Source: Acidobacteriota bacterium
GTDB lineage: Bacteria > Acidobacteriota > Thermoanaerobaculia > Multivoradales > Multivoraceae
DNA length: 64,000 nucleotides
Direction of reading: 5' to 3'
Assembly (NCBI GenBank): GCA_039026915.1
Contig: JBCCLJ010000011.1
Span: forward strand, 72 to 64,071
Part shown: positions 19,261 to 49,952 of the stretch, piece after piece
Layout of the letters: each line of letters opens with the position of its first letter
Position numbering within the stretch: position 1 is the first letter of the stretch
Translations under genes and position numbers: made by a program
Notes under the pieces: model-generated
What the model saw: only the letters and a program-made list of their open reading frames with translations
Databases searched by the model: none
Told to the model about the DNA's origin: nothing

Positions 19261-20739
19261 TCATTCGGCGGCGTAGTCGGGGGGTGGCGTGAAGCCGCCC
19301 AGGGGCTCGGCGACGAGGCGTGCGAACTCGAGCGTCGTGCGGTCGCCGTAGGCCGGGCCGATCGCCTGGAGTCCGATCGGCATGCCGCTGCTCGACGGCC
19401 CGGTCGGAAAGACCGTCGAAGGCAGGTAGCAGAGCGTGGCAAGCCCAGCCCAGAAGATCTGCTGGAAGTAGGGAACGCGACGGTCGTCGATCGCCAGGGT
19501 GCGGCTGAAGATCGGGCTCTGGTCGTGCGGGAAGCCCTCGGTGGCCGAGCTCGGGCAGAGCACCAAATCCCACTCGTCGAAGAACTCCTGCCATGCGACG
19601 CGCAGCGCGCCGCGCTGTGCGTGCTCCGCCATCCAGACGCGGTAGCCGATGTTGGTCGCTGGCGTCGTTCCGACGATGGCGTTGAGAAGCGCCATGTAAG
19701 TCTTCTGGTGATGGGCGGGATCGAAGCTCGGCCGCGCCGTGTCGGAGACCTTGGCGCCCAGCTTGGCCAGGCGGTCGGCGACGTCCAAGACGCGGCCCGC
19801 CATCTCGTCGCTCACCGGCGCGACCTCGTCCGTCGGCCAGACGGCGATGCGCAGCTCGCTCAGGCTGGCTGCCCGCGGTGCCGGCAAGTCGAGCTTCCAA
19901 CCGGGGGAGTGCAGGATGTCCGGGCCTGCCAGAAGCTCGAAGGCAAACGCGAGATCTTCGGCGCTGCGCGCCAGCGGTCCGACGACGGCGAGGTCCGCGT
20001 CCTGCGGGACTGCAGCGGCGCCCGGCGGCGTGTGACCGCGCATCGGCACGACGCCCCAGGTCGGCTTGTGACCGTAGACGCCGCAGAAGTGAGCCGGGTT
20101 CCGGATCGAACCGCCGATGTCCGATCCAGCTTCGAGCGGGGTGAAGCCGGCCGCGAGCGCCGCGCCGGCGCCGCCGGAGGAGCCGCCGGGCGTGCGCTCG
20201 ACGTTCCAGGGATTGTTCGTCGTGCCGTAGATGGCGTTGTAGCTCTGTGTGTCGGCCAGCAACAGCGGCACGTTCGTCTTGCCGAGGATGTGCGCTCCCG
20301 CCTGCTGCAAACGCTCGACGACGACGGCGTCGCCCGTAGCGACGTTCTTCCCGGCGGCGGCCGGAATGCCCCACGTCGTTTCCAGACCGGTGACGTCGAA
20401 GGACTCTTTGACGGTCATCGGGATACCGTGCAGGGGTCCGAGGTCCCGTCCAGCGGCGAGCGCTTCGTCTGCGGCTCGTGCCGCGTCCAGGGCGCGTTCG
20501 AAGTTGCGAACGACGACGGCGTTGAGCGCCTCGTCTCGCTTCTCGATGCGATCGATGAGGTACTGCGTCAGCTCGACCGACGAAATCTCGCGCTCTCGGA
20601 TCTTCGAGGCGAGCTCCTGCAGCCCGCTATGGGCGTGAGCCGTTTCTCTGTTCGTCGGCTGGGCACCAGCGCGTCCGAGAGTGCCGACCGCCGCGGTCGC
20701 CGCGAGGCCCTGTGCAAAGCGTCGTCGAGTCAGATGCAT
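19261..20739 (-). CDS. amidase-signature (AS) family amidase with twin-arginine signal
   Basis: Tat-like N-terminus MHLTRRRFAQGLAATAAVGTLGRAGA. AS motif GGSSGGAGAALAAGF with upstream MTVKESFDV (catalytic Lys context). Confidence 0.9.
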   Translation of the reverse strand: MHLTRRRFAQGLAATAAVGTLGRAGAQPTNRETAHAHSGLQELASKIREREISSVELTQYLIDRIEKRDEALNAVVVRNFERALDAARAADEALAAGRDLGPLHGIPMTVKESFDVTGLETTWGIPAAAGKNVATGDAVVVERLQQAGAHILGKTNVPLLLADTQSYNAIYGTTNNPWNVERTPGGSSGGAGAALAAGFTPLEAGSDIGGSIRNPAHFCGVYGHKPTWGVVPMRGHTPPGAAAVPQDADLAVVGPLARSAEDLAFAFELLAGPDILHSPGWKLDLPAPRAASLSELRIAVWPTDEVAPVSDEMAGRVLDVADRLAKLGAKVSDTARPSFDPAHHQKTYMALLNAIVGTTPATNIGYRVWMAEHAQRGALRVAWQEFFDEWDLVLCPSSATEGFPHDQSPIFSRTLAIDDRRVPYFQQIFWAGLATLCYLPSTVFPTGPSSSGMPIGLQAIGPAYGDRTTLEFARLVAEPLGGFTPPPDYAAE

Positions 20740-20796: not shown

Positions 20797-21459
20797 CTAC
20801 CGTTCCGACGGCGACCGGTTCGCTTGCCGCCTCTGCTCTGCGCGCAGTCCATCGATCACGAACGTCAGCGACGTCTGGAAGCTCCGTTCGAAGTCGAGGT
20901 CGAGCGCCGGGAGCGCTGCCGCGAGAGACGGAAAGCGCTCCCGCTCCGCGCTGCCGAGCTCGAGCACTCGGTAGGGCTTGGGGCCGCGCTGGCGGTTGAG
21001 CGCCTCGAAGCGCTCCTGCCGCTGCACGGAGTGGATCGTGTGATGGATGACGAAGACGTAGGCGATCCATGCCTCTCGCGGCGCGAAGCCGGCTCCTCGG
21101 AGGACTGCCAGAGCTCCCTCGACCAGGGCGAAAGCCTGTTCCGAGGCCGGTCCGATCGCGCTGGCGTAGTCGGCCGCTCCGGGCATTTCGAGGAGCGCAG
21201 AACGAAAATTGACGGCGAGTTCTTCGAGGTAGATGTCCCAGGCCTCCGAAGTGGGGCGTGCGACCCGTGCACAGAAGTGGTCCATGGCGGCCGCCAGCAG
21301 CGCTTCTCTCGATTCGAAGTGTCGGTAAAGCGCCGTTGCACTCACACCGAGGCGTCGCGCCAGCGAGTGCATCGAAAACCCTTCGATACCGATTTCGAGC
21401 AGTGCTTCGACGATGCGGTCGCGGTCGAGGCGTGAGCGTACGGGCGCTTCTACAGGCAT
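20797..21459 (-). CDS. TetR/AcrR family transcriptional regulator
   Basis: HTH block IVEALLEIGIEGFSMHSLARRLGVSATALYRHFESREALL. Confidence 0.9.
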   Translation of the reverse strand: MPVEAPVRSRLDRDRIVEALLEIGIEGFSMHSLARRLGVSATALYRHFESREALLAAAMDHFCARVARPTSEAWDIYLEELAVNFRSALLEMPGAADYASAIGPASEQAFALVEGALAVLRGAGFAPREAWIAYVFVIHHTIHSVQRQERFEALNRQRGPKPYRVLELGSAERERFPSLAAALPALDLDFERSFQTSLTFVIDGLRAEQRRQANRSPSER

Positions 21460-21493
21460 GAACTCGAGGTCCCGGAGGTTCGCTGGAAACCAG

Positions 21494-21510
21494 TGTTAAC
21501 GGCGTTAACA
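21494..21510. promoter_or_regulatory. candidate TetR operator: perfect 7-bp inverted repeat TGTTAAC-ggc-GTTAACA
   Basis: Read directly at 21494-21510. It lies in the 113-nt intergenic region between the divergent tetR gene (start 21459) and the ABC permease (start 21573). Confidence 0.55.
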
Positions 21511-21572
21511 TCAGGTTAGCAGAGCTTGGAGCACTGTGCAGCGGCACTCGTGTCGGAGAGAATCGAGCTCTC

Positions 21573-22550
21573 GTGAACGACTCTCGTGCTGCTGGCGTCG
21601 CGGGGACCGCCGCGACAGGCTCCTCGCAGGCCTTTCGAATCACTCTGAAGGGATTGGCTCGTCTGCTTCTGTCGGTACTCCTCGTTTCAGCGCTGTGCTT
21701 CTTCCTGGAGGACCTGGCCCCGGGCGACGTGCGCACCGCGGAACGTCTGGAAAGGCCCTGGACCCCGGCTGAGCGGCTCGCCGCCCACGAGGTCTCACCG
21801 GGTCGATCCTTGGTGGCCTGGCTTCAGGGGATCGTCCGGGGCGATCTCGGACGAACCGCTTCGACGGGTGAGCCCGTCAGAGAGCTGCTCTTGCCGCGCC
21901 TCGGAAGCAGCTTGCGCCTTGCGTCACTGGGCTGGCTCTTGGCCTGGACTGGGGCCTTGATCGTGGCGTGGATCGAGGTCGCGCGCCCCGGGAGCGTTTT
22001 GGCTGTGGCTGTCGAATCCCTCGGAGCGGCGCTCTTCAGCGTGCCCCCGGCCGCGTTTGCACTCTTCGGAGCGCTCGCGGCCGCCGAGCGGGGTTGGCTC
22101 CCGCCGCTCTTCTCCGACCGCGTCCCGTTCACCGGCTGGATCCTGCCGTCCTGGGCGATCGCGCTTTGCCTGCTCCCTCGACTGAGCCGCCTCGTTGCCG
22201 ATGAGCTCAAGAGCGAGGTGTCGAAGCTGCACAGCCTGCAGGCGCGCGCCTGGGGTCTCGGCGGGCATCGCGTGCTGCTGCGTTGCCTCCGTCTCAAGGC
22301 GCCGGTCTTCTGGACGCGGGCGGGTTTGAGCTTCGGAACGGCGATCGCCCTCGGAATGGTCGTCGAGATCGCCTTCTCCTGGCCGGGAATCGGAGCCCTC
22401 GCGCTGCGTTCCTTCGGCGAACAGGACGCTGTTCTCTTGGCGGGGGTGCTGTCCCTGACGACTGCTTGCTCAGTGTCCGCGACGATCGTCGGCGACCTTC
22501 TCGCAGCTGCAGCCGATCCCCGGGTGGAGTCGTCGGGAGGGCTGCTTTGA
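21573..22550 (+). CDS. ABC transporter permease (peptide/nickel, DppB/OppB-like)
   Basis: GTG start; the true start is uncertain. N-terminal TM segment LARLLLSVLLVSALCFFLEDLAPGD is typical of OppB/DppB-type permeases, with multiple further TM segments. Confidence 0.75.
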   Translation: MNDSRAAGVAGTAATGSSQAFRITLKGLARLLLSVLLVSALCFFLEDLAPGDVRTAERLERPWTPAERLAAHEVSPGRSLVAWLQGIVRGDLGRTASTGEPVRELLLPRLGSSLRLASLGWLLAWTGALIVAWIEVARPGSVLAVAVESLGAALFSVPPAAFALFGALAAAERGWLPPLFSDRVPFTGWILPSWAIALCLLPRLSRLVADELKSEVSKLHSLQARAWGLGGHRVLLRCLRLKAPVFWTRAGLSFGTAIALGMVVEIAFSWPGIGALALRSFGEQDAVLLAGVLSLTTACSVSATIVGDLLAAAADPRVESSGGLL

Positions 22551-23476
22551 GTCGTCGCGGCTGGTCTTGGGCAGGCCTGCTGCTCTTGCATGCGATGCTC
22601 TTCGCGGGAGCTTGGCTGCTTCCCAACGACGCGACGGTTCAGTTCCGCAGCGATCTCGACCTGAAGCCCTCCCTTCCCAGTCTGCTCGGGTCGGAGGGTG
22701 AGCTCACCGTCCTGGCCCGCTCGGAGGGCGAGTGGCGGCGCGCACGTCTGAGGCTTTTCTGCCGGGGCCCTGCGCTCTTCTGCGTCGACGAGCCTCTGCG
22801 CTTTTTTCCGCTGGGCACGGACTCTCTGGGCAGGGACCGACTCAGTCGCATCGCTCGAGGTGGGCTGATCTCGCTGACCATCGCGACGGGCGCCACGGCC
22901 CTGTCGCTTGGGATCGGTCTCTTGACGGGCCTGCTCGCCGCGCTGGGGAACTCCTGGCTCGGCGCTGCGCTCACGTTGATTGTCGACGTCGGTCGCTCGC
23001 TGCCCTGGCTGCTCCTGGTACTGGCTCTGCGAGCTCAGCGACCGCTCCAGATGGCCGCGTGGGAGTCCGTGGCGTTCTTGATCCTGATCCTCGGGCTCGG
23101 TGGCTGGTTCTCGACGTCTCGCCTCGTGCGAATGCGGGCACTTCAGGCTCTGGCGGAGCCTTGGGCCGAGGCGGCTCGCGGCCTCGGCCTGTCGCGCGTG
23201 CGGATCGGTTTGACGCACGTGTCGCCCCACCTCCGGCCGGTGCTCGTTGCGCAGGGCCTGGCCCTGGTTCCGGCGTTCGTTCTGGCGGAGACGTCGCTCT
23301 CTTTTCTCGGCCTCGGGATCGCCGATCCGCTCGTCAGTTGGGGAAGCCTTTTGGCCGAACTGCGCTACCGGGACGTTATTCTCTCCCGCCAAGGCGCAGC
23401 GTTCGTCCTGCTCCCTCTTCTTCTCGTCAATCTCGCCTACCTATGGACTGCCAAATCGTCCCGGTCGACGCACTGA
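22547..23476 (+). CDS. ABC transporter permease (DppC/OppC-like)
   Basis: TTG 22547 overlaps the upstream stop (TTGA). The FPLGTDSLGRDRLSRI block is typical of OppC/DppC, followed by TM segments. The upstream part of track ORF 22283.. was discarded. Confidence 0.8.
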   Translation: MSRRGWSWAGLLLLHAMLFAGAWLLPNDATVQFRSDLDLKPSLPSLLGSEGELTVLARSEGEWRRARLRLFCRGPALFCVDEPLRFFPLGTDSLGRDRLSRIARGGLISLTIATGATALSLGIGLLTGLLAALGNSWLGAALTLIVDVGRSLPWLLLVLALRAQRPLQMAAWESVAFLILILGLGGWFSTSRLVRMRALQALAEPWAEAARGLGLSRVRIGLTHVSPHLRPVLVAQGLALVPAFVLAETSLSFLGLGIADPLVSWGSLLAELRYRDVILSRQGAAFVLLPLLLVNLAYLWTAKSSRSTH

Positions 23477-25152
23477 AGCGCTGCTGCGTGCTCGTCCTGC
23501 TACTGACGCATTCTCTGGCATCGGGAAGCCTCTGGGCCCAGCCGGCAGCCGGCGGGCGGCTCGTCGTCGGTCTCAAGTCGGAGCCGCGCACCCTGAACCC
23601 CGTCTTTGCCAGCGATCGCGCTTCGCTGACGGTGAACCGCCTGCTGCACTCGGATCTGATTCGCATCGATCGCGAGACACAGCGCCCTCTGTCCTGGCTT
23701 GCGAGCCGCTTCGAGTCCTCTCCCACGACGCTCGACGTCGAGCTGCGTCCCGGGCTGCGCTTTTCCGACGGGCAGCCTCTGACCGTGGACGACGTGCTCT
23801 TTTCGCTCCGTCTCTACCTGGACGAAAGCGTTGGCTCGCCGTATCGAGAGCTCCTGGCCGCCGGCGCTGAGCCGCCGATTCTCGAGCGACGGCCGAATGG
23901 CGTACGCCTGCGTACGGGCGCTCCGCGAGCGGTCATGGAGAGAGTGCTGGACGGCCTGCCGATCCTGCCGCGCGCGGCCCTGTCCGAGCGCCTGGACTCC
24001 GGAAAGCTGGCGGACTCCTGGGGCTTGGGTGAGTCGAAGCAGGTGGTTGGCCTCGGACCGTTTCGCGTCGCCGAATACTCCGCCGGCCGGTTCCTGCGCC
24101 TGGAGCGCAACCCGTACTACTGGCGCACCGACGCCGACGGCCGAGCGCTTCCCCTACTCGACGAGGTCGTCTTTGTCTTCGGCGATGCTGCGGCTCTCGC
24201 GGCGCGTTTCGAGCAGGGAGAGGTCGACGTTCTCGACGGTCTGTCGGGCCAGGACTTCAAGCTGCTCGAGCAGCGGGCGAGCAGTCAGCGGCTCGTCGAC
24301 CTGGGCGCTGGTCTCGGCTACGAGTTCCTGTTCTTCAACCGGAACCGACCAGGCCCACGCCCCGAGGCCGTGCGTTGGTTTGCCGACACGAAGTTTCGCA
24401 AGGCGATCTCACGGGCGATCGACCGAAAGATCCTCGTCGAGGCGGCCTACGGTGGTCGCGCAGAACCTCTCTCGCTGCATGTGAGCAGTGGCGATCGGCT
24501 CTGGTTCGACCGCGCGTCAGAGGCGCCGCGCCGCTCCCTGGCCGGCGCGCACGCTTTGCTCGCCAACGCCGGATACGTTCTGCGAGACGGTCGGCTGCAT
24601 GACCCAGAGGGCTTGGCGGTCGTACTCAATATCGTGACCAACTCGAGCAATCGATCTCGTCAGCAGGCCGCGAGTCTGATTCGTCAGGACCTCGAAGAGC
24701 TAGGCATCGAAGTGAGCGTCGCCACCTTGGAATTCCGGTCCTTCCTCGAGCGCATCTTCGAGGCGCGCGACTACGACCTCGCGATCCTGGGGCTGGCGCG
24801 CGGCGACGTCGATCCCAATCCGGACCTCAACGTCTTCAGGACCGGTGGATCGAACCGTGTCTGGGAACTCACAGGTGGAGCAGAGGAGGATGCGCCCTGG
24901 CAGCCGGAGATCGATCGTCTGCTCGTGGAGCAGCGCAGCATGCACGAGGCGAGTGCGCGTCGTGCGGCGTATTCCCGCGTCCTCGAACTCCTGCGGCAGC
25001 ATGAGCCGGTCGTCTTCCTCGTCGCTCCGCACGTTCTCGTCGCAGCCTCCGCCGGTCTGGGCAACTTCGCCCCGGTCGTGCTGGGTCATCCGACGCTCTG
25101 GAACGCGGACGAGCTCTACTGGGTGGACCCAAACCGCCGGACGCGCCGATGA
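23443..25152 (+). CDS. ABC transporter substrate-binding protein, family 5 (peptide/nickel type)
   Basis: ATG 23443 gives MDCQIVPVDALKRCCVLVLLLTHSLASGSLWAQ, a signal peptide. LVVGLKSEPRTLNPVFASD and NPYYWR are typical of SBP_bac_5. The upstream 711 nt of track ORF 22732.. was discarded. Confidence 0.85.
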   Translation: MDCQIVPVDALKRCCVLVLLLTHSLASGSLWAQPAAGGRLVVGLKSEPRTLNPVFASDRASLTVNRLLHSDLIRIDRETQRPLSWLASRFESSPTTLDVELRPGLRFSDGQPLTVDDVLFSLRLYLDESVGSPYRELLAAGAEPPILERRPNGVRLRTGAPRAVMERVLDGLPILPRAALSERLDSGKLADSWGLGESKQVVGLGPFRVAEYSAGRFLRLERNPYYWRTDADGRALPLLDEVVFVFGDAAALAARFEQGEVDVLDGLSGQDFKLLEQRASSQRLVDLGAGLGYEFLFFNRNRPGPRPEAVRWFADTKFRKAISRAIDRKILVEAAYGGRAEPLSLHVSSGDRLWFDRASEAPRRSLAGAHALLANAGYVLRDGRLHDPEGLAVVLNIVTNSSNRSRQQAASLIRQDLEELGIEVSVATLEFRSFLERIFEARDYDLAILGLARGDVDPNPDLNVFRTGGSNRVWELTGGAEEDAPWQPEIDRLLVEQRSMHEASARRAAYSRVLELLRQHEPVVFLVAPHVLVAASAGLGNFAPVVLGHPTLWNADELYWVDPNRRTRR

Positions 25153-25706
25153 TCGAAACGACGAAGACCTCGGACGAGGAGCTCGTCGAGTCGTGTCTGG
25201 AGGGATCAACCGAGGCCTGGGAAGCCCTCGTTGATCGCTACCAGCGACTCGTGTGGGCGATCGTCACGCGTCGCGGCGTCGGCGAGGCGGACGTCGCGGA
25301 CGTCTTCCAGTCGATCTGGGTCGACGTCTTCAACGATCTGGGTCAGGTACGCAATCGCCGAGACGTGCGTCCGTGGTTGAGCTCGATCGCGGTGCGGAAG
25401 TGCTCGAGATGGCATCGTGATCGACTCCGAGCAGGGGACGGTGATGCGTCGTCCGACACGGTCGAAGAGGTCGAAGAGGCGCCATGGCTCGAAGATCTGC
25501 TGCGGCGCGATGCGATGCTGCGCAGCGTCGAGCGTCTTTCGCCGCGCTGCCAGGAGCTCGTTCGGCTACTCTTCTTCGCCGAGCCGCCAATGCCCTATCA
25601 GCAGGTCGCCGAGCAGCTCGGTCTCGCCGTCGGCTCCATCGGTTTCATTCGTGGGCGCTGCCTCGAGAAGCTGAAGGCCGTGCTCGAAGAAGAAGGGCTG
25701 TGGTGA
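25149..25706 (+). CDS. ECF-type RNA polymerase sigma-70 family factor
   Basis: Region 2 is YQRLVWAIVTRRGVGEADVADVFQSIWVDVF. Region 4 HTH is PYQQVAEQLGLAVGSIGFIRGRCLEKLK. ATGA overlap with the SBP stop. Confidence 0.9.
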   Translation: MIETTKTSDEELVESCLEGSTEAWEALVDRYQRLVWAIVTRRGVGEADVADVFQSIWVDVFNDLGQVRNRRDVRPWLSSIAVRKCSRWHRDRLRAGDGDASSDTVEEVEEAPWLEDLLRRDAMLRSVERLSPRCQELVRLLFFAEPPMPYQQVAEQLGLAVGSIGFIRGRCLEKLKAVLEEEGLW

Positions 25707-28420
25707 GCGCGGCCGAGGCTCTGGCCGAGCAGCTGATCGCCTGCGGGAGCCGCGACGATGTCGAGGCTTTCGTCCAAGGGCAGCCGGAGCTGAACACGTC
25801 GGCGACCATCGACTCACTCGTCCCACAGGTCCTCGGCAAGATCCGCGTCGATCTCGGTGCGGCCGAGGCTCTGCTGCAGCGAATCGAGTGGTTGGCAGAA
25901 CCGGTTGCCGCGGGTCCTCGCCGTGCACTGCTGATTCGCACTCGAGCCAACGTCGACCACTTTCGCTCCGACTATCCGAAGGCGCACTCGGGCTACCTGC
26001 GCGCCATCGAGGCCTACTCGGCGCTCGGCGACGATCTGCAGGTGGCGATCACCAAGAGCAGTGGGCTCGTCAACGCGTCGTACCTGGCGGAGCAGGGGCT
26101 CGTCGGCCGCTGGTCCGACGAGGCCGAGGCGGTCTTCGTCGAGCGCGACGATCCTCAACGCCTGGCTTCGTTGATGAACAACCGCGCGGGGGCCGCCTTC
26201 CGTCGCGATCGCTGGGAAGAGGCACTCGATCTGTACGGGCGAGCGGCTGAGCTCTTCCGCAGCCTCGATCGTCCGGGTGACGTCGCGATCTGCTACCGCA
26301 ATCGCGCCACCTGCCTGGTGAGCCTGCTGCGCTTCGAGCAGGCTCTGCGCGAGTACCGGGAGTGCTTGGACGCCTGCGCGTCCTTGGATCTCGCGGCGCT
26401 GGCGGCGGAAGCTCGCTACAACATCGCGTACCTCTACTTCCTGCGCGGAGAGTACGAGGAGGCGAGTCGTCGCTTCGGCCGCGCTCGTCGGGCCGCGCTC
26501 GATCGAGGAGACGCCTACCATGCTTCGCTCTGCGATCTCGATGAGTCCGAGCTCCATCTGGAGATCAATCGGACCCAGGAGGCGCGTGAGCTGGCACTGC
26601 GCGCCGCGGATTCGTTTGCTCTTCTCGGTCTCGACTTCGAGCGGGCGCGCTCGCTCGAGTTCGCCGCGGTGGCGGAGGGCCGTCTGGGTCAGGACAGCCG
26701 TTCGATTGCACTCCTTTCCAGGGCGGGCTCGTTCTTCGAGGCGGACGACAACCCGGTAGGCCTGGCGCGTGTGGGACTGCGTCTGGCAGAGCTGCGCGCT
26801 CGGCGCGGGCGCTTCGACGAAGCGTCGACGCACCTCGAGACTTCTCGAGAGCTCTTGCCCGCTGGAGAGGCTCAGTTCTTGCGGGCGCGGCTGGAAATCC
26901 TGGCAGCCGAGGTCCACCTCGAGCTCGGAGACCGTGCTTCCGTCCGGCGTTGTCTCGCAGCGGCCCGTCGCGTCGGAGCTGAGCAGCACGCCGTGCTCTC
27001 TTGGCAGCTCGACCTGGTGGAAAGCCGGGCTTCCGAGGACGAGGGTGACCTCGAGGGCGCCGTGGACTCACTGAAGAGAGCGTGTAGCGCGCTCGACGCG
27101 CTCTGGTCCCAGCTGGGAGGTGACGAACAGCGTTCGCACTTTCTCTCCGACAAACGCCACGTGTACGAGGGTCTCGTCGTTCTCGGACTGCGACAGGGGA
27201 GGGCGAAGGCCGCGTTCGAAGCGATCCAGCTCGCGAAGTCGCCGGGGCTGGCGGAGCTCATGACCTACGGCCTCGACGAGGATCGGCTGGCGGCCGTCGG
27301 CCTCGATGCCGCGACCGTCGAGCGTGCGCGCGAGCGTCGGGCCGGGGCGCTGCGGCGTGAAGGGGCGGCAAGCCAGCCCTCCGCCGATGGAGTCCTGGAG
27401 CCGCGTTCGGTCGATGTCGCGCTTCTCCAGGAGTCGATCCCTGAGGATGCGACCCTGGTCGAGTATTTCCTTGCTCGCGGGCAGGTCTACGTCGCGCTCG
27501 CCGCCCGAGAACGCCTGGAGGTCCGTGCGCTCGGGTCGGCGCGTTCTGCTCTCGAAGCCCAGCGCCTCCTGGCCTTCCGACTCACGCGCAGCGCGGAGTC
27601 TCTCGATCTGTCGGCGCCGGTCGACCGTCGAGTGCAGAAGTCCGTCGAGTCGCTGCACGCACAGCTCGTCTCGCCCTGGATCGATGATTGTCCGACTCCC
27701 TCTCTGGTCTTCGCCCCCCACGGCTTTCTTCATCGCGTCCCTTTCCACGCCTTGCAGCAGGGCGAACATGCACCGCTGGGCATCGAGCGACTCGTGTCCT
27801 ATGCGCCGAGCGGGTCGATTCTTCAGATCTGCCGGCGTCGCGAGGCTTCTCTGGGAACGGGTGCGCTCGTTCTCGGATACGCGGACGCCGATGCCCCGCA
27901 GCTCGAGGCCGAGGCAAATGCGGTGGCCAAGCACGTCGAGGGGAGTCGCCTGTATCTGGGGACGGAGGCGACGCGATCCTGCCTTTCAGACGAATCGGAG
28001 AAGGCAAGATTCGTCCACGTTGCTTCGCACTGCCACTTCCGTGTGGACAACCCTCTGTATTCGGGACTTCGACTTGCCGACGGAGAGTTGACGGCTCTGG
28101 ACCTTCATCGCGCTCGCCTCGTGGCGGACCTGGTCTCGCTCAGCGGCTGTAGCACCGGTCACTCCACCCTCGTCGGTGCCGACGAACAGCTCGGTCTGGT
28201 GCGCGGAGCGCTCTTTGCCGGTGCGCGCTGCGTGCTGGCCACTCTCTGGGACGTCGCTGACTCGGTAGGTGCCGCTTTCATCGATGAGTTCTACCGACAG
28301 GTGGGGCAGGGGGTTTCTCTCGATCAGGCGCTGCGCTCGACGATGACAGGAGTCCGAGAGACCTCCCCGAATCCCTTCTACTGGGCGCCGTTCGTGCTCC
28401 TCGGCGCCGCAGGCAATTGA
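25703..28420 (+). CDS. TPR-repeat / CHAT-domain (caspase-like) protein
   Basis: GTG 25703 overlaps the sigma stop (GTGA). The central region is TPR-like helical repeats. The C-terminal CHAT domain has a His context (FVHVASHCHF) and a Cys context (LVSLSGCSTG), and ends NPFYWAPFVLLG. No TM segments were seen. Confidence 0.85.
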   Translation: MSAAEALAEQLIACGSRDDVEAFVQGQPELNTSATIDSLVPQVLGKIRVDLGAAEALLQRIEWLAEPVAAGPRRALLIRTRANVDHFRSDYPKAHSGYLRAIEAYSALGDDLQVAITKSSGLVNASYLAEQGLVGRWSDEAEAVFVERDDPQRLASLMNNRAGAAFRRDRWEEALDLYGRAAELFRSLDRPGDVAICYRNRATCLVSLLRFEQALREYRECLDACASLDLAALAAEARYNIAYLYFLRGEYEEASRRFGRARRAALDRGDAYHASLCDLDESELHLEINRTQEARELALRAADSFALLGLDFERARSLEFAAVAEGRLGQDSRSIALLSRAGSFFEADDNPVGLARVGLRLAELRARRGRFDEASTHLETSRELLPAGEAQFLRARLEILAAEVHLELGDRASVRRCLAAARRVGAEQHAVLSWQLDLVESRASEDEGDLEGAVDSLKRACSALDALWSQLGGDEQRSHFLSDKRHVYEGLVVLGLRQGRAKAAFEAIQLAKSPGLAELMTYGLDEDRLAAVGLDAATVERARERRAGALRREGAASQPSADGVLEPRSVDVALLQESIPEDATLVEYFLARGQVYVALAARERLEVRALGSARSALEAQRLLAFRLTRSAESLDLSAPVDRRVQKSVESLHAQLVSPWIDDCPTPSLVFAPHGFLHRVPFHALQQGEHAPLGIERLVSYAPSGSILQICRRREASLGTGALVLGYADADAPQLEAEANAVAKHVEGSRLYLGTEATRSCLSDESEKARFVHVASHCHFRVDNPLYSGLRLADGELTALDLHRARLVADLVSLSGCSTGHSTLVGADEQLGLVRGALFAGARCVLATLWDVADSVGAAFIDEFYRQVGQGVSLDQALRSTMTGVRETSPNPFYWAPFVLLGAAGN

Positions 28421-28552
28421 GGAGCTCGCGCCCTCCAGGAACTTTTTTTCGGGCGCCTATATTTTTTGCTCGCGCTTGCGCCCCTATTAGACCGAACGTT
28501 GCCTGTCCGCTCCGGTGATCCGGCCGAACTCTAGAGACCTCAATTCCGCATC
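28421..28552. promoter_or_regulatory. intergenic region with mutually exclusive GC hairpins, T-runs and a GGAACTT motif
   Basis: GGGCGC (28451-28456) can pair with GCGCCC at 28428-28433 or at 28478-28483. T7 run at 28443-28449 and T6 run at 28462-28467. GGAACTT at 28438-28444 resembles an ECF -35 element, but no convincing -10 was found. Confidence 0.3.
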
Positions 28553-29170
28553 ATGACTTCCAAACCCCCCGAAGACAGTCGAGACCGCGACCTGAGCCTC
28601 GAAGCCTTGGTGGACCTGGCGCGCGGCCTCGGTGATCCCGCCGAGACGACGCGAGCCGGTCGCGAGCGCACCGAGGCATCCTCGAAGGCTCTGCGCGCCT
28701 TTTCGGAGCTCGCTGCTGCGACCGACCTCTCCTCGGAGGTTGCTGAAACCGAGGAAGGCGCTGCGGCGCTGAGGGCGACGCGTAGCCTGGCCGGCCTCCA
28801 CCACGCACCGATGGTTGCGGCTGTGCAGGAGATCGTTCAGGGAGCTGCGGGTCTCCGGTCCGAGCGTTCCGCCGAGCGGCGTCTCAGACTGCGGTCCAAG
28901 GGCGTCGTCGTCGAGGTCCTGGTTGATCCGCAGAGCGTCCAGGACGGTGTGGTGGTCGTCGGCGAGCTCTTTGGCGACTCTCCCGAGCGCCCGGCTCTGT
29001 CCAACGTTCCCGTGGTTCTTCAAGACGATGACCGCGTGCTGGCGTCTCTACGCTCCTGCAGCGACGGGGAGTTTCAAGCGGACGTTCGCGCCGAGGGAAA
29101 TCTCACTCTGTCGATCCTTCTGCCTCAGGACGAGGTGCTCAGGATCCCACTCCTCGAAGGTACTCTCTGA
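28553..29170 (+). CDS. hypothetical cytoplasmic protein (helical N-half, beta-rich C-half), translationally coupled to the S8 peptidase
   Basis: 205-aa ORF with an ATG start and high GC3. Its stop overlaps the S8 start by 1 nt (TGATG). No signal peptide and no recognised motif. Confidence 0.55.
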   Translation: MTSKPPEDSRDRDLSLEALVDLARGLGDPAETTRAGRERTEASSKALRAFSELAAATDLSSEVAETEEGAAALRATRSLAGLHHAPMVAAVQEIVQGAAGLRSERSAERRLRLRSKGVVVEVLVDPQSVQDGVVVVGELFGDSPERPALSNVPVVLQDDDRVLASLRSCSDGEFQADVRAEGNLTLSILLPQDEVLRIPLLEGTL

Positions 29171-30726
29171 TGCCCCCCTACAAGACTCCCCTCTCGCTGA
29201 TCACTCCCCGCTCGCTGATCTGGGTACTTCTCCTTGCCCTCCTCGCGCCTGCCCTCGCGCTTGCCGGCAACGGCGATGAGTCCGTGCTCCTCCGAATTGC
29301 GGAGTCCGACATCGAGGACGTCGAGAACCTCTACGGCTTCGACTTCGACGACGCGGACGGCTTTCTCGAGGGAGGCCAGTGGGTCTTCGAACTCGAGGTT
29401 TCAGAGGTCTCCGTGAACGTCTTCGAAGCGCTCGAGTTGGATGAGCGAGTCACCGTCGACACCGCTGGCCCTGCGCGCATCCCTACCCTCGACGCCGCGG
29501 GCTTCGCCGGCCGCGATCTCGGTTCACAGGAGTTGGCCACCGGCCGCCTTTCGACAGGTTGTCGTACTGGAGGACTCGTCCCCAACTGGACCGGCTACTC
29601 GCACCAGTTTGCTCTCGGGCAGGTCGGCGTGGCGCCGACGGAGCGCCTCCAGGGAAACTGTGGTCGGAGCGTGGTCGTGGCCGTCATCGACACGGGGATC
29701 GCGTCGACGCTGCCGAGCCTCGACGGCGTGCTGCTCCCGGGGTATGACTTCGTGCTCGACAGGGAAGGGGCGAGCGAGTGGCGAGCCGTGGGGCACAAGA
29801 GGAGAGGCTCTTCCCGCAGCAAGGTGGAGGCCGCTGTGCAGCAGTCGATTACCGCGATCGTCGAAGGACAGGGTGTTCCCGTCGTCGTCGATCAGTCGAT
29901 CACTGCGATCGTGGAACAGTCGATCACCGCCATCGTCGAGGACCTCGAGCTGCCGACCGCTTTCGGGCACGGCACTCTCGTCGCCGGTTTGGTTCACGCG
30001 GTCGCCCCCGAAGCCCGCATCCTCCCGATTCGCGCCTTCGACGGCAAGGGCGAGGGTGACGTCTTCGACATCGTGCGCGCGATCTACTACGCCGTCGACC
30101 GGGGCGCCGACGTCATCAACCTGAGCTTCTCGACGACCTCGAATTCTCCCGAGCTCCTCCGTGCGATCGAGTTCGCGAAGGGCAGGGGTGTGGCCTGCGT
30201 CGCCGCCGTCGGGAACCAGGGACGGAACGTGCTGACCTATCCGGCGGCATTCGACGACGTCGCCGGTGTTGCCGCGATCGAGGACAACGACAGCGCCGCA
30301 CACTTCACCAACGTCGGTGAGGCGGTCGCGATCAGCGCTCCCGGCGAACGTCTCATCTCGCTCTTCCCTGGAGGCCTCTATGCCGCGGTCTGGGGCACTT
30401 CGTTCAGTGCTCCTCTCGTCTCCGGCGCAGTAGCGCTGGTGATCGGTCGGTCCTACGGTGATGCGCAGCCGGGCGAGGCCCTCGGCGTCATCAAGGAGGC
30501 CGCTCGTCCTCATGCAACCGAGCAAGAGCTTGGAGAAGGCGTTCTGGATATCGCGGAAGCACTCGTCCAGATGCTGCGCAGCCGTGACTCCGTCCCGGAC
30601 TCCGATCCCCTTTCCGACCTCTCTGATGGCCCCGACTTCGACCCTGAGGACGAGGATGAAGAGGAGGACGAGGAGGAGGACGAGGACGAGGACTTCGAAG
30701 AGGACGACGAAGAAGACGACGACTGA
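29170..30726 (+). CDS. S8 family (subtilisin-like) serine peptidase, secreted, with internal QSITAIVE repeats and poly-acidic C-terminal tail
   Basis: Signal peptide …LIWVLLLALLAPALALAG. The catalytic triad contexts are VAVIDTGI (Asp), FGHGTLVAGL (His) and WGTSFSAPLVSG (Ser). Confidence 0.9.
   Translation: MPPYKTPLSLITPRSLIWVLLLALLAPALALAGNGDESVLLRIAESDIEDVENLYGFDFDDADGFLEGGQWVFELEVSEVSVNVFEALELDERVTVDTAGPARIPTLDAAGFAGRDLGSQELATGRLSTGCRTGGLVPNWTGYSHQFALGQVGVAPTERLQGNCGRSVVVAVIDTGIASTLPSLDGVLLPGYDFVLDREGASEWRAVGHKRRGSSRSKVEAAVQQSITAIVEGQGVPVVVDQSITAIVEQSITAIVEDLELPTAFGHGTLVAGLVHAVAPEARILPIRAFDGKGEGDVFDIVRAIYYAVDRGADVINLSFSTTSNSPELLRAIEFAKGRGVACVAAVGNQGRNVLTYPAAFDDVAGVAAIEDNDSAAHFTNVGEAVAISAPGERLISLFPGGLYAAVWGTSFSAPLVSGAVALVIGRSYGDAQPGEALGVIKEAARPHATEQELGEGVLDIAEALVQMLRSRDSVPDSDPLSDLSDGPDFDPEDEDEEEDEEEDEDEDFEEDDEEDDD
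29842..29940 (+). repeat. three in-frame copies of a 24-nt unit encoding QSITAIVE inside the S8 peptidase (between catalytic Asp and His)
   Basis: The copies lie at 29842-29865, 29893-29916 and 29917-29940, read directly. The last two are tandem. Confidence 0.8.
30640..30723 (+). repeat. GA-rich low-complexity coding repeat (28-residue Asp/Glu tail of the S8 peptidase)
   Basis: Encodes DPEDEDEEEDEEEDEDEDFEEDDEEDDD. The antisense strand yields the spurious poly-Ser ORF 30510..30797. Confidence 0.8.
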
Positions 30727-30736
30727 TCGTTGAGTA

Positions 30737-30767
30737 CGCCGGTGCTCGCCGGCGCCGGAAGAGTTTT
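30737..30767 (+). terminator. candidate terminator hairpin after the S8 peptidase
   Basis: CGCCGG (30737-30742) / loop TGCTCG / CCGGCG (30749-30754), with a TTTT run at 30764-30767. The gap between stem and T-run is 9 nt, so this is a weak call. Confidence 0.3.
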
Positions 30768-30813
30768 GGCTATTTCATAGTAATAAAGCAATAACACTAT
30801 TTAAGAGAGCATC
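30765..30813 (+). promoter_or_regulatory. AT-rich promoter region upstream of the 30814-38522 operon
   Basis: ttggctatttcatagtaataaagcaataacactatttaagagagcatc is roughly 30% G+C by hand count, in a window that is otherwise strongly GC-rich. It contains TTGGCT and several TA-rich hexamers. The exact -35/-10 could not be assigned. Confidence 0.4.
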
Positions 30814-31977
30814 ATGAACTCCGACCCCTCCGAACTGACCGTAGCGACCGTTCACGACGCGCTTTCGAGCACGAAAGACGCGACCCCTTCGAGTGCCGTC
30901 GTCAGCGTTCGCTTTCCAAGGCAGCGGACAAGCCCGCCCTCGCCGGCGCGTTCGAACGCCTCCAAGGTTGCCTTCACCTGCCGGCACGTCGATCTCTCGA
31001 GTCTTCGCGGTCTGACCACTGCGTGCGTTCCCCGCGCTGGAGATCTCGTCTTGGCAGAGGTGGTGCGCAGACGGCAGCACCCGCGGATCGAGCTGACCGA
31101 CGGTCGAAAGGCGACTCTCTTTCCCGGCGATGAGATCCTCGTCGCCTACGGCAACCGGTACGCCAGCGATCAGTTCGAGTCGCTCGTTCCGGAGGACCTC
31201 GATCCTTGCCATCTCGTCGCTTCGGGAGGCGTTGCGAGCCGGGTTCGTCACCGTCACAACGGCGTGCGTCCCGCGACCAAGATCCGACCGATCGGCCTGG
31301 TCACGGACTCCTCGGGTGTTGTCGTCAACCTTTCCTCGTTCGGGATCGAACTCGAGCCTCCGGTCCGGCGACCGCCCAGCTTTGCCGTCGTCGGGAGCTC
31401 GATGAACGCGGGCAAGACGAGGACAGCGATGCAGCTGATCTGGGCGCTCAAGAAGGCCGGTTTTCGCGTGGGAGCCGCCAAGATCACTGGCACCGGCTCC
31501 GGCGGCGACTACTGGAAGTTCGTCGACTCCGGTGCCGATCGAGTCCTGGACTTCGGCGATGCGGGACACGTCTCGACCTATCTCGTCGAGCTGGACGAGC
31601 TGCTGCGGATCGCTCGAGGACTCGTCGGTGAGCTCGAACGCTCGGGAGCAGAGGTCGTCGTCCTGGAGATCGCCGACGGGGTCTTTCAGGGCGAGACGGC
31701 CGCGCTCCTCGAGTCGCCGGAGATGCGAGCTCTCGTCGATGGCTATTTCCTCGCCGTCACGGACTCGCTCTCGGCGTCGGCGGGAGCTGATTGGATGCGT
31801 CGACGCTCGCTGCCTCTCCTCGCTCTCTGCGGCACGCTGACTCGGGCGCCGCTCGCCATCCGGGAGGCCTCGACAGCGACCGAGGTTCCGATTCTCAGCC
31901 TCTCCGAGCTCAGCTGCCCGAACGTCGCCAGCTCTCTCTTCTCGGTCACGGCCTCCGTCGAGCGCCCCGGTGCCTGA
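30814..31977 (+). CDS. DUF1611-like P-loop domain protein (function unknown)
   Basis: VVGSSMNAGKTRTAMQLIWALKKAGFRVGAAKITGTGSGG aligns by eye with the DUF1611 block GTDCxVGKMTTxxxLxxxLxxxGxxxxFvATGQTG. The N-terminal ~190 aa are unassigned. Confidence 0.55.
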   Translation: MNSDPSELTVATVHDALSSTKDATPSSAVVSVRFPRQRTSPPSPARSNASKVAFTCRHVDLSSLRGLTTACVPRAGDLVLAEVVRRRQHPRIELTDGRKATLFPGDEILVAYGNRYASDQFESLVPEDLDPCHLVASGGVASRVRHRHNGVRPATKIRPIGLVTDSSGVVVNLSSFGIELEPPVRRPPSFAVVGSSMNAGKTRTAMQLIWALKKAGFRVGAAKITGTGSGGDYWKFVDSGADRVLDFGDAGHVSTYLVELDELLRIARGLVGELERSGAEVVVLEIADGVFQGETAALLESPEMRALVDGYFLAVTDSLSASAGADWMRRRSLPLLALCGTLTRAPLAIREASTATEVPILSLSELSCPNVASSLFSVTASVERPGA

Positions 31978-33727
31978 CACGAACTCAACCCGGTCGGATG
32001 GCGCGCCACAGCTTCCCGGCGTGCTCCGAGGCAGCAACGGAGTTCTGCTGCTCGGCGTGGCCGGGGCCGGTCTGGGCCAGGCGGCCCTCAGTGTCGCCGT
32101 ACCTCTCAGCGTTGCCCGTGCCTTCGATCAGCTCGTCGCGAGCGAAGCGCTCACCGGCGACTGGGCGCCAAGGCTGGGCGTGCTGTTTGCCGCTCTGGGG
32201 TGCATCGCGTTCGTGGTTCGCTGGGCCGAGCGTTCGCTCTCGGAGGAGCTCGGCCAGCGCTACGTTCACCGAGTTCGACTGAAGCTCTGGGATCACATGG
32301 TGAAACTGCCGACGTCAACGCTCGTCGGTCCCCGGCGCGCCGGTACGCTGCTTCGGTTCGTGGGCGACCTGAACGCTCTCAAAGCCTGGGTCAGTCGCGG
32401 TTTCGTCGCCAGCTCGATCGCGATGCTCAGCTTGTCTGGCGGTCTGGGTGTCCTGTTTCATCTGAGCCCTCGCCTGGGTGCGCTGGTTGCGATGGCCTTG
32501 TCGCTCGGGCTCGTCGTGCAATCCGCCATCACTCGTCAGCTTTCCAGGCGGGTGAAGCGGTTGCGCAGGGACAGAGCCCGCCTGGCCGATCACATCGTGC
32601 AGCACGCAGGCACACTGGGTGTGATCCAGGCTTCGAATCAGCGACGCCGCGAGCGTCGGCGGATGCGTCGAAGCTCTCAGAGGGTCGCGCGGTCCGCCGA
32701 AGCCGTTGCGAACCGGTCGGGTTGGCTCGTCGGCTCCGGTGAGCTTCTGTCGATCCTCATCTTGGCTCTCGTGCTCGTCGGGGGGGCGGAAGCGCTGCGC
32801 GACGGACGCCTGTCTTCCGGCGAGGTCGTGGCGGCTCTACTGCTGGCCCGCTTCCTGGGGCGCCCCGTGCGGCGACTGAGTCGCGCTCAGGAGCAGTGGC
32901 TCAAGGCGCGGGTCTCGAAGCGCAAGCTGAACCAGTTCTTGTCGCTCGAGACGCTCGAGGAGCCGACTCGTGCGAAGCGACTCAAGTCCGGGACTGGCGC
33001 GGTCAAGCTGCGGGAGCTCGGGCTTCACTCTTCGGGGCCGCTCCTCAACGCCACGGTCCGGCCCGGAGACCGCGTCGAGCTTTGCGGTACCAACGGCATC
33101 GGCAAGTCGACCCTTCTGCGCGTCCTTTCCGGGCTCGGCCGTCCAGCGCGCGGCAGGCTCGTGCTCGACGGCCGCGACGTGGCGAACTGCCGCCTGGAGG
33201 CGATCCGAGGAGCCGTCTCCCTGGTCACTGCCGACCTGCCGCTTCTGCGGGGATCGCTGCGCCGCAATCTTCTCTACGGGCTGCCCTCGGGCGAGGACGC
33301 CGATCTTGACGTGGTGCTGCGTCTGCTCGACCTCGGATCCTGGATCGAAAGCCTGCCGCGCGGACTCGAGACCCGCGTGCAGGAGGGGGGTCTGAACCTC
33401 TCCGCCGGGCAGCGACAGCGCGTCGCGATCGCGCGGGCTCTGCTGTCTCGGCCTCGGCTTCTGCTTCTCGACGAGGCGAACACGACTCTGGACAAGACCG
33501 GTGTCGCCTCCTTGCGGGAGGTCATCGAGGACTTTGAAGGCACCGTCATCTACATCTGGCCAGGGACCGACGCGCCCGAACCGACCGTGCGCTGGAAGCT
33601 CAGTGAGAAGGGACTCCGATCCCGTCGTTTGAGTCCCCCGAAGACGCTCCGCGCGAGTGTCGAAGAGAGCCCACCTTCGTTGGATCACCGCGTCGATCTC
33701 GCCGAACTCAGACTGCAGGAAGCCTAA
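31970..33727 (+). CDS. fused ABC exporter (TMD-NBD half transporter)
   Basis: GTG start overlapping the upstream gene by 8 nt, with six hydrophobic segments. Walker A GTNGIGKST, signature LSAGQRQRV, Walker B LLLLDEA. The Q-loop and H-loop positions appear substituted (see finding). Confidence 0.85.
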   Translation: MPDTNSTRSDGAPQLPGVLRGSNGVLLLGVAGAGLGQAALSVAVPLSVARAFDQLVASEALTGDWAPRLGVLFAALGCIAFVVRWAERSLSEELGQRYVHRVRLKLWDHMVKLPTSTLVGPRRAGTLLRFVGDLNALKAWVSRGFVASSIAMLSLSGGLGVLFHLSPRLGALVAMALSLGLVVQSAITRQLSRRVKRLRRDRARLADHIVQHAGTLGVIQASNQRRRERRRMRRSSQRVARSAEAVANRSGWLVGSGELLSILILALVLVGGAEALRDGRLSSGEVVAALLLARFLGRPVRRLSRAQEQWLKARVSKRKLNQFLSLETLEEPTRAKRLKSGTGAVKLRELGLHSSGPLLNATVRPGDRVELCGTNGIGKSTLLRVLSGLGRPARGRLVLDGRDVANCRLEAIRGAVSLVTADLPLLRGSLRRNLLYGLPSGEDADLDVVLRLLDLGSWIESLPRGLETRVQEGGLNLSAGQRQRVAIARALLSRPRLLLLDEANTTLDKTGVASLREVIEDFEGTVIYIWPGTDAPEPTVRWKLSEKGLRSRRLSPPKTLRASVEESPPSLDHRVDLAELRLQEA

Positions 33728-36285: not shown

Positions 36286-36311
36286 GCGATCGACGCTCTC
36301 GAGAGACATTC

Positions 36312-49829: not shown

Positions 49830-49952
49830 CGCGCGACCGAAGCGCGCTCCGCGTCCTCGTTCGAATCCAGAACCCGCGCTCGACGGACGTCGCACTCCAC
49901 ACCCCCTCTGGCTCGTTTTGTCCCTCAGACTCTAGCGGTTGTCGAGTAAGCC

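Follow-up and report, generated by a model that had tools for sequence, protein, structure and literature searches.

The window examined here, a stretch of 64,000 nucleotides (nt) from the metagenome-assembled genome (MAG) of a member of the Acidobacteriota (contig JBCCLJ010000011.1 of assembly GCA_039026915.1), contains at positions 21573-30726 a unit of approximately 9 kb that can be read, with roughly even confidence, as a single signalling operon: a peptide-gated proteolytic switch for a sigma factor of the extracytoplasmic function (ECF) group. The components are ordered permease, permease, solute-binding protein (SBP), sigma factor, TPR-CHAT protease, promoter-like motif, p205 (a small anti-sigma-like protein) and S8 subtilase (Table 1). 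An initial annotation of the same DNA had grouped the sigma factor, TPR-CHAT, p205 and S8 genes as a compact module beginning at 25149. All four open reading frames (ORFs) were correctly placed and are conserved together, but the unit starts further upstream, at 21573, and both the linked peptide importer and an octapeptide cassette within the S8 protein had been overlooked.

The conservation of this arrangement was studied through a scan of one genome per species, which detected relatives of the CHAT protein in at least 576 genomes. The census described below covers the best 79 species-level loci of that scan, nearly all of them labelled Acidobacteriota and designated here by L numbers, and used hidden Markov models (HMMs) built from the analysis's own alignments. 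The order of the operon is kept in loci whose CHAT proteins show just 31-47% identity to that of the window; among these relatives the genes run from the permeases, in some cases preceded by ATPases, through the SBP, sigma factor, TPR-CHAT protein and a protein of approximately 210 residues to S8, after which some loci have an HD-domain gene or another S8 gene. In 67 of 76 loci the CHAT gene is immediately preceded by the sigma factor gene, with the SBP gene upstream in 63 of 70 and the permeases in 49 of the 63 evaluable loci. On the downstream side, a member of the p205 family is found within 1.5 kb of the CHAT gene in 59/73 loci and within 7 kb in 51/54, and an S8 gene within about 3.3 kb in 62/70 and within about 9.5 kb in 52/54. 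A second S8 gene (19/54) and an HD-domain gene (15/54) are less frequent downstream. These counts bear out the co-occurrence of sigma factor, CHAT protein and S8 across genomes that had been proposed as a check on the original module.

Several of the genes overlap in the window. The stop codon of the SBP gene overlaps the start of the sigma factor gene (ATGA), and both of the junctions reported initially are present: GTGA between the sigma factor and CHAT genes, where the GTG at 25703 starts the latter and the TGA at 25704-25706 ends the former, and TGATG between p205 and S8, where the stop codon shares one base with the ATG. For the second permease there are two candidate starts, a TTG at 22547, which would form a TTGA overlap with the stop codon of the first permease, and an ATG at 22595. 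The importer parts present in the window, a family 5 SBP and both permeases, may belong to a transporter of the Opp/Dpp type; in the orthologous loci L005, L008, L018 and L062, two ATP-binding cassette (ABC) ATPase genes are found upstream. The gene that follows S8, at 30814-31977, was considered as a further member of the module and rejected, having no homology to its positional counterpart in L001, the closest locus. Because it is not conserved there, the unit is taken to end at 30726.

The S8 subtilase, for which a signal peptide had been reported initially (placed here at residues 1-32, by sequence inspection), belongs to its family on the evidence of an Asp-His-Ser triad (D174, nt 29689; H267, nt 29968; S411, nt 30400) and the oxyanion residue N349, all invariant among the aligned orthologues. 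Between the catalytic Asp and His lie three copies of the octapeptide QSITAIVE (29842-29865, 29893-29916 and 29917-29940), the DNA sequences of which differ at synonymous sites only. Orthologues have an insert of 70-100 residues between the same two catalytic positions with repeats of the form Q-S-T-x-x-I-L-D, and an exactly repeated 8-mer precedes the catalytic His in 91 of 104 S8 genes, representing 66 of 77 loci, in two to nine copies. The protein sequence of the copies is identical within a genome and different between species. At least 28 octapeptide types are found across species, including QSTTSILD, QSSTSILD, QSTSGILD, QSLQPILE, QETTPILD, QRTRAILG and QSTVAFLD, and tandem S8 paralogues carry the octapeptide of their genome. 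In S8 proteins of the Angelobacter type, one extra copy lies ahead of the catalytic Asp, within the N-terminal region, and the insert is absent from the S8 proteins of the actinobacterial locus L091 and the rearranged locus L009.

The DNA encoding these repeats is considerably more variable than their translation. Nine of the 348 within-gene pairs of copies are identical at the nucleotide level, and the mean difference is 4.45 nt per 24. The Ser at the third position of the five copies in L028 is encoded by TCC, AGC, AGC, TCA and AGT, which involves switches between AGY and TCN codons. Since the copies differ at synonymous sites and have arrived at the same residue by AGY and TCN paths, the identity of the octapeptide reflects maintenance at the protein level, rather than recent homogenisation of the repeats. 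In two genomes, L032 and L054, two complete modules with different octapeptides are found side by side: QSTVALLN (nine copies) and QSTVAFLD (four copies) in the former, QSTVSLLN and QSTVAFLD in the latter. The first module has approximately nine to ten copies, and the second has four copies of QSTVAFLD in each of two S8 paralogues. This difference is as expected if the two modules constitute orthogonal channels.

Two other repeats are evident in the S8 gene of the window. The C-terminus of the protein is an acidic tail of 26 residues, nearly all Asp or Glu, encoded at 30646-30723 by a GAGGAC-type repeat of which Tandem Repeats Finder counts 13 copies; none of six aligned orthologues has it. 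At the N-terminus, an 18 nt tandem duplication (29185-29220; 2.0 copies, 94% match) gives rise to TPLSLI/TPRSLI, which immediately precedes the signal peptide's hydrophobic core.

One way in which the octapeptide appears to be related to another component of the operon is through its association with the sequence of the TPR-CHAT protein. For this, 12 loci that are closely related were compared; QSSTSILD is the octapeptide of five of them and QSTTSILD that of the other seven. Twenty columns in the alignment of the CHAT protein separate these two groups perfectly, and all of them fall in the TPR half (residues 27, 43, 55, 104, 106, 138, 153, 164, 175, 181, 186, 204, 210, 309, 313, 333, 347, 349, 353 and 464 of the window protein), the numbers of variable columns in the two halves being almost equal (155 versus 154). 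The hypergeometric P value for this clustering is 5e-7, which is optimistic, as are the other P values for co-variation, in that the loci are 12 related MAG loci of a single clade and pairs of them share ancestry. When all 792 possible divisions of the loci into five and seven are ranked by the number of separating columns in the CHAT protein, the split by peptide type comes first and the next best yields 13 columns. No separating columns are found in the sigma factor, p205 or the C-terminal half of the CHAT protein, and there is one in the SBP. The best split for the sigma factor, the SBP and the C-terminal half of the CHAT protein is another bipartition, and that for p205 a third, with peptide types mixed in each case. 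A similar pattern is observed among pairs of loci with a background divergence below 0.12: divergence in the TPR half is 0.070 between loci with the same peptide and 0.152 between those with different peptides, the corresponding values for the CHAT domain being 0.104 and 0.107. On these alignments, the type of octapeptide co-varies with the CHAT protein's TPR half in particular. Despite the optimistic statistics, the effect is large and limited to a single region. Simple linkage is argued against, because the CHAT domain and p205 gene that intervene do not share the signal.

The TPR-CHAT protein matches both the CHAT family of Pfam (PF12770, E = 3.7e-50) and TPR_12 repeats. Its TPR superhelix extends over approximately residues 3-470 (nt 25709-27112) and the CHAT domain over approximately residues 583-901 (nt 27449-28405). 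The contexts of the catalytic residues, H776 in VASHCHF (nt 28028-28030) and C816 in LSGCSTG (nt 28148-28150), had been judged intact, and an alignment of 25 full-length orthologues agrees, with C816 invariant and H776 at least 90% conserved. The presence of this His-Cys dyad in a CHAT domain that follows a TPR superhelix bears out membership of the caspase-like proteases of clan CD. A model from AlphaFold2 (AF2; predicted local distance difference test, pLDDT, 84.2) consists of a long superhelix of helical repeats, a partly disordered linker and the CHAT domain. Its best fold match in the PDB, as found by Foldseek, is Csx29 (8eey_B, E = 8e-16), followed by separases and the TPR-CHAT portion of DdvA (8rot_A, E = 2.9e-12). 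The NCBIfam model of Csx29 (NF041237), which has a cutoff of 300 bits, scores 59.3 bits, and no Cas7-11-sized ORF was found adjacent to the gene, the flanking genes encoding a TetR regulator, an amidase, an ABC exporter and a hydrolase. By both score and context, the window protein appears not to be a type III-E Craspase Csx29.

The sigma factor consists of sigma2 and sigma4 domains only (Sigma70_r2, residues 27-92, E = 8.5e-9; Sigma70_r4, residues 128-176, E = 2.1e-5), as is characteristic of the ECF group. Its score against the NCBIfam sigma70-ECF model (TIGR02937) is 72.6 bits, above the cutoff of 42.9, and the cutoff of no specific sigma factor family is reached. It is 32% identical (E = 1e-23) to the sigma factor of the actinobacterial S8/CHAT locus L091, which scores 135.8 bits against the sigma factor HMM built here.

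The nature of p205 is apparent from its relatives. As a single sequence it has no match in Pfam or NCBIfam, in agreement with its earlier description as motif-less, and a word-indexed search with it retrieves only p205 itself. Composition is equally uninformative, in that the GC contents of the first and third codon positions are about the same, leaving the ORF indistinguishable by this test from an antisense ORF at 28487-29023. An exhaustive phmmer search nevertheless detected 37 relatives of 150-240 residues, together with one match inside a protein of 2321 residues, and it is these 37 homologues, along with the conserved position, that show the ORF to be real. A predicted N-terminal four-helix domain (residues 16-84) is joined by a linker to a C-terminal beta-sandwich (residues 109-201). 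The N-terminus of the family has the pattern W-x-D-F-x-R-G...H-L-x-x-G-C-x-x-C; the linker is characterised by F-D-S...P-x-x-A-G-x-R, in which the Gly and Arg (G100 and R102) are invariant, and is represented in the window by AGLR (nt 28847-28858); and the beta-rich C-terminal domain ends in F-G-E-F.

A zinc motif of the form H-x3/4-C-x2-C is present within the first 80 residues of 67 of the 75 orthologues from the loci, and none of the 75 has a convincing transmembrane segment. The Pfam family zf-HC2 (PF13490) matches 5 of 35 members and CarboxypepD_reg 13 of 35. When a profile of 58 family sequences is compared with the PDB, RslA (3hug_B) is matched with E = 4e-4, RsiW with E = 0.012 and DdvA, not significantly, with E = 0.36, the alignments to all three covering the region of the zinc motif. 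The AF2 model of p205 (pLDDT 80.5) has four helices at residues 16-84 (pLDDT 59-80), a linker of lower confidence and a confident beta-sandwich; Foldseek with the whole model returned generic beta-sandwich matches only, all with E >= 0.006, and left the helical domain uninformed. The initial annotation's statement that no classical anti-sigma factor is present consequently holds for the window at the level of motifs, but not for the family. Judged by its homologues, p205 is best regarded as belonging, in degenerate form, to a family of soluble anti-sigma-like proteins that lacks annotation. Among the 120 database members listed, none is given a Pfam domain, and those that are named are termed 'hypothetical protein'. 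This lack of annotation is probably why ECF54-type contexts, discussed below, have been catalogued without an anti-sigma factor.

Shorter versions of the p205 family, of approximately 135-150 residues, keep the linker and beta-sandwich. They are found in L004 (13283-13705), L007 (5808-6215), L073 (16680-17085), L088 (16646-17036) and L091 (5595-6098). In the last of these, at least, the N-terminal anti-sigma domain is not covered by the match. An adjacent sigma factor gene is lacking in four of the five loci and present in the actinobacterial L091.

The interval between the CHAT gene and p205 (28421-28552) is 132 nt long, as had been reported, but there is no support for the claim that it is structured: the minimum free energy is -31.4 kcal/mol, compared with a mean of -36.25 for shuffled sequences (z = +1.34), such that it folds worse than the shuffles. 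What it does contain is a conserved bipartite promoter-like motif, recovered when the 200 nt preceding p205 were searched for dyads across 74 loci. Scanning 1.69 Mb of loci on both strands with the corresponding position weight matrix (PWM), at a threshold of at least 18 bits, gave 76 hits, of which 55 are directly upstream of p205. Several of the remainder lie just after S8, and in L018 and L062 there are hits upstream of the pair of ABC ATPase genes with which the operon begins. With a score of 31.8 bits, the window copy is the only one in the 64 kb, where 0.01 occurrences would be expected by chance and the next best hit, at 30768, just after S8, reaches just 9.1 bits; strong copies are found at the equivalent position in L008, L013, L053 and L071. 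Two conserved blocks are separated by approximately 14-16 unconserved bases, always on the coding strand and 45-150 nt before the start codon. This geometry fits a sigma factor-dependent promoter, and the operon's own sigma factor is the inferred user. Of the three positions that had been proposed for a promoter search, 28553 is therefore the one preceded by the motif. None is found before 21573, nothing standing out upstream of the permeases, and the recurrent pairs upstream of the sigma factor at 25149 lie only within SBP coding sequence. A search for sigma-70-type promoters in 21300-31000 gave none, nor was a terminator-like site seen in the spacer.

Taken together, these observations suggest a circuit. 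At rest, p205 would hold the sigma factor through its N-terminal helical domain. The S8 protein would be exported, and the identical octapeptides of its Asp-His insert would be freed by proteolysis, perhaps its own, and taken up by the co-encoded oligopeptide-type ABC importer. Once in the cytoplasm, the octapeptide would bind the TPR superhelix and so activate the His776/Cys816 protease, which would cut p205, with the invariant A-G-x-R of the linker as the most probable site, and thereby free the sigma factor. The latter could then transcribe from the conserved CTATATTTTT-N14-CCCTTAT promoter before p205-S8, with more S8 and peptide providing positive feedback and newly made anti-sigma factor resetting the switch. 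Proteolytic control of the sigma factor, as envisaged initially, thus seems the most plausible logic, but the likely target is the anti-sigma factor p205 rather than the sigma factor itself, because p205 belongs to an anti-sigma-like family. The wider proposal, that the Acidobacteria have an unrecognised class of peptide pheromone (or pherotype) based on octapeptides embedded in S8, re-imported by an Opp-like system and read by TPR-CHAT proteins that cleave an anti-sigma factor and release an ECF sigma factor, is tentative, having somewhat less than an even chance of being correct.

A number of points weigh against this scheme. Its foundations (the genes present, their synteny and domains, the intactness of the catalytic residues, the conservation of the motif, peptide identity within genomes and peptide/TPR co-variation) are direct observations, but each biochemical step, be it binding, peptide release, import, cleavage or promoter use, is deduced from them, and the cleavage site in p205 is a guess from conservation. 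Both the window p205 and its closest orthologue, that of L001, have lost the His and Cys zinc ligands, and the assignment of the window protein as an anti-sigma factor derives from its family membership. The association between peptide and TPR, besides its optimistic statistics, could in principle arise through coupled recombination of the two segments. The promoter-like motif is unlike the usual GGAAC/CGT promoter of ECF sigma factors, and could be the site of another regulator. Because no copy is present upstream of 21573 in the window, autoregulation of the sigma factor is unsupported there; and because it is absent from the 113 nt gap between the TetR gene and the start of the operon, the part encoding the importer, sigma factor and CHAT protein may be under TetR or constitutive control in this genome. 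Furthermore, no ATPase genes for the importer were found in the window by tblastn or by a regular expression for Walker A/LSGGQ, both of which also missed the ABC exporter at 31970-33727 (ABC_membrane and ABC_tran by Pfam); either the ATPase motifs of that exporter are atypical, or the negative search is unreliable. Some cassette-bearing loci, such as L010, have no adjacent importer.

These last two observations would be consistent with a sigma factor/anti-sigma factor/TPR-CHAT switch in which the TPR domain recognises unfolded S8 precursor in the cytoplasm, through the same repeats. The system would then be a sensor of secretion or precursor load, or a processing step, and the ABC importer a co-regulated target for nutrient uptake; the peptide/TPR co-variation shows recognition and does not specify the compartment in which it occurs. 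Sensing of this kind is nonetheless unlikely, given that translational coupling links the importer genes to the sigma factor gene in the window and that the importer is present in 63/70 loci, that up to nine exact tandem copies suit a polypeptide precursor better than a docking site and that the S8 protein bears a clear Sec signal peptide. The combination of secreted protease and oligopeptide importer would also suit nutrient acquisition, and an amidase and an S15 peptidase are among the window neighbours. S8 might accordingly digest environmental protein, with the resulting oligopeptides imported unspecifically, the sigma factor up-regulating protease and transporter, and the octapeptide repeats being a structural or auto-inhibitory feature of this subfamily of subtilases. 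A structural loop, however, need not match in every copy and in both paralogues yet differ between close species, and independent codon paths to the same residue imply selection on the peptide sequence itself; as co-variation specific to the TPR would not be expected of unspecific peptides either, such a scavenging regulon seems quite unlikely.

It is very unlikely that the system has no anti-sigma factor and that the neighbouring proteases stabilise or degrade the sigma factor directly, as has been proposed from gene context in the passages on ECF54 in PMC8999054 and PMC7826278. The actinobacterial locus, with its homologous sigma factor, S8 and TPR-CHAT proteins and a small protein consisting of the beta-sandwich alone, would accord with such direct control, as would the missing zinc motif of the window p205. 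Yet an anti-sigma domain can be recognised in the p205 family of the Acidobacteriota, and S8, being extracytoplasmic, cannot reach the sigma factor. The similarity of the CHAT fold to Csx29, the NCBIfam score for the latter and weak PADLOC matches (BovA, 25 bits; subtilase, 49.8 bits; IetS, 19.6 bits) might instead point to a function against phages or in conflict, in the manner of Craspase or caspase effectors, with the CHAT and S8 proteins as effector proteases triggered by infection. All these scores are far below family level, there are no cas or other defence genes in the flanks, the S8 protein is exported rather than cytoplasmic and the chromosomal context with an ABC importer is stable across the phylum, in contrast to patchy defence islands, such that a role in defence appears extremely improbable. 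A switch gated by an imported peptide is therefore retained as the preferred interpretation.

Table 1. Features of the putative signalling operon and their positions in the window
Feature	Position	Strand	Basis
ABC importer permease 1 (BPD_transp_1), the gene that opens the operon in the window	21573..22550	+	Pfam E = 4.1e-9
ABC importer permease 2 (BPD_transp_1)	22547..23476	+	Pfam E = 1.4e-18 on 22577-23476
Solute-binding protein, family 5 (oligopeptide/dipeptide type), periplasmic	23439..25152	+	Pfam SBP_bac_5 E = 8.8e-62
ECF (group IV) sigma factor, 185 residues	25149..25706	+	Sigma70_r2, Sigma70_r4, TIGR02937
Cytoplasmic TPR-CHAT caspase-like protease, 905 residues	25703..28420	+	Pfam CHAT and TPR_12
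Bipartite promoter-like motif, cCTATATTTTT-N14-cCCtTAT	28455..28488	+	~65 nt upstream of p205 start codon
p205, soluble anti-sigma-like protein, 205 residues	28553..29170	+	Family homology, conserved position
Secreted S8 subtilase, 518 residues	29170..30726	+	Pfam Peptidase_S8 (PF00082) E = 1.7e-35
Octapeptide cassette between catalytic Asp and His	29842..29940	+	QSITAIVE x3

Upstream of the operon in the window, genes for a TetR-family regulator (20797-21459) and an amidase (19261-20739) are both on the reverse strand, divergent from the operon start. Directly after the S8 stop codon there is a terminator-like hairpin (30754-30770), which overlaps an AT-rich stretch (region 30754-30801). An HD_5/HD-domain gene of HD-GYP-like type follows S8 in loci that include L005 (12062-12748), L010 (10146-10796) and L007 (6212-6898), and is absent from the window; where present, it may be an output of the system. 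Elsewhere in the window, three large ORFs have a coding-type GC content at third codon positions: 35964-38522 on the forward strand, whose 852-residue product has no Pfam match at E <= 0.001, and 45861-49931 and 49953-54077 on the reverse strand, encoding 1357 and 1375 residues.

Searches of the available literature found no description of the operon, the p205 family or the S8 cassette. Three features could not be found described: the soluble anti-sigma-like family, the dedicated promoter-like motif and the multi-copy, species-specific octapeptide of S8 that co-evolves with a putative TPR sensor. The Acidobacteria are among the most abundant of soil bacteria, and to our knowledge almost nothing is known of how they signal. 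If correct, the peptide-gated switch would represent a major pathway of cell-cell communication or self-sensing for the phylum, given the number of species-level genomes with CHAT relatives. It would also be the first RRNPP-like circuit outside monoderm lineages, and the first with a caspase-family protease as the peptide receptor. The TPR-CHAT class is large and widespread, and we know of no inputs to it other than in the RNA-activated Craspase; the octapeptide would provide a ligand for a free-standing member. By the same token, p205 would supply an anti-sigma factor for the 'orphan' ECF54-like sigma factors catalogued without a regulator, and the species-specific pairs of peptide and TPR would constitute a ready-made set of orthogonal peptide-activated proteases.

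The general class to which the system would belong is that of protease-gated switches of ECF sigma and anti-sigma factors. The Lon-SAVED protease CalpL of type III CRISPR systems, which acts with the anti-sigma factor CalpT and the ECF sigma factor CalpS, provides one comparison: a cytoplasmic protease that a ligand activates frees an ECF sigma factor by cutting a soluble anti-sigma-like protein. CalpL differs in that it is a Lon rather than a caspase-like protease, its ligand is a cyclic oligoadenylate rather than a peptide and its context is linked to CRISPR. A related CRISPR-T/Lon case is mentioned in PMC10028731.

The association of sigma factor, CHAT protein and S8 is not wholly new. The initial annotation took it not to be a described system, but it is preceded by the ECF54-type context (in the passages of PMC8999054 that treat it), with Craspase (PMC10028731) and DdvA (PMC11506125) as mechanistic precedents. 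The accounts of ECF54 (Huang et al. 2015) given in PMC8999054 and PMC7826278 place an ECF sigma factor with CHAT, subtilase and carboxypeptidase(-regulatory-like) proteins, propose proteolytic control and, in the same passages, describe the group as actinobacterial and without an anti-sigma factor. The acidobacterial operon has the CHAT, subtilase and carboxypeptidase-like neighbourhood set out in PMC8999054. Since the actinobacterial L091 has homologues of all four proteins, namely the sigma factor, S8, TPR-CHAT and the beta-sandwich of p205 (its small protein matching the p205 HMM with E = 4e-10), the two contexts are likely to be related. The acidobacterial version departs from ECF54 in its host phylum, in a p205 with a zf-HC2-type anti-sigma domain by family, in gene order, in the linked ABC importer and in the octapeptide cassette.

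In Craspase, it has been established experimentally that the TPR-CHAT protein Csx29 cleaves a soluble sigma factor inhibitor, Csx30, relieving the inhibition of CASP-sigma (PMC10028731). The window likewise has a cytoplasmic TPR-CHAT protease beside an ECF sigma factor and a soluble, two-domain putative inhibitor of the sigma factor. However, there are no Cas7-11, CRISPR RNA or cas genes in the operon, so that the activator here cannot be a target RNA; p205, with a beta-sandwich and, by family, an anti-sigma domain of the zinc-type (ZAS) class, is unrelated to Csx30; and a secreted S8 protease and peptide importer are added. In DdvA of Myxococcus xanthus, stated to be the only characterised case, a ZAS domain is fused to TPR-CHAT and the protein has been structurally characterised (PMC11506125). 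DdvA/DdvS resembles the proposed window system in that a zinc-type anti-sigma domain, linked in function to a TPR-CHAT module, governs an ECF sigma factor, and DdvA is among the top fold matches of the window CHAT protein. The match of the p205 family profile to DdvA, weak and not significant, falls in the N-terminal domain of the latter. It is, though, a single transmembrane polypeptide with a periplasmic TPR-CHAT and an incomplete active site (PMC11506125), whereas the window has separate soluble proteins and a full-length CHAT domain with its dyad intact. As the genes are separate and the p205 family has no transmembrane segment, p205 and TPR-CHAT do not appear to be of the DdvA type. The DdvA/DdvS regulon also differs, consisting of a cyclic-oligonucleotide-based anti-phage signalling system (CBASS) and CRISPR, in place of the protease and importer operon found here.

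The closest parallel for the peptide itself is with the RRNPPA systems, described from Firmicutes (PMC9765709), in which extracellular proteases of the subtilisin type process secreted propeptides, in some cases tandemly duplicated, and the products, after import by Opp, bind to TPR receptors (PMC11343458). The corresponding elements, known here from genes alone, are a secreted precursor with tandem units, an extracellular subtilisin-type protease, an oligopeptide permease and a candidate cytoplasmic TPR receptor, and peptide and receptor diversify together in both. The TPR-CHAT protein has no sequence relationship to the RRNPPA receptors, and the host is of the diderm phylum Acidobacteriota as opposed to the Bacillota. 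The peptide units lie inside the protease itself, not in a small propeptide gene, and the output would be a CHAT protease acting on a pair of sigma and anti-sigma factors, not a helix-turn-helix domain or a phosphatase. Hence the most appropriate view, by analogy, is that the window system would work like RRNPP without being a member of it.

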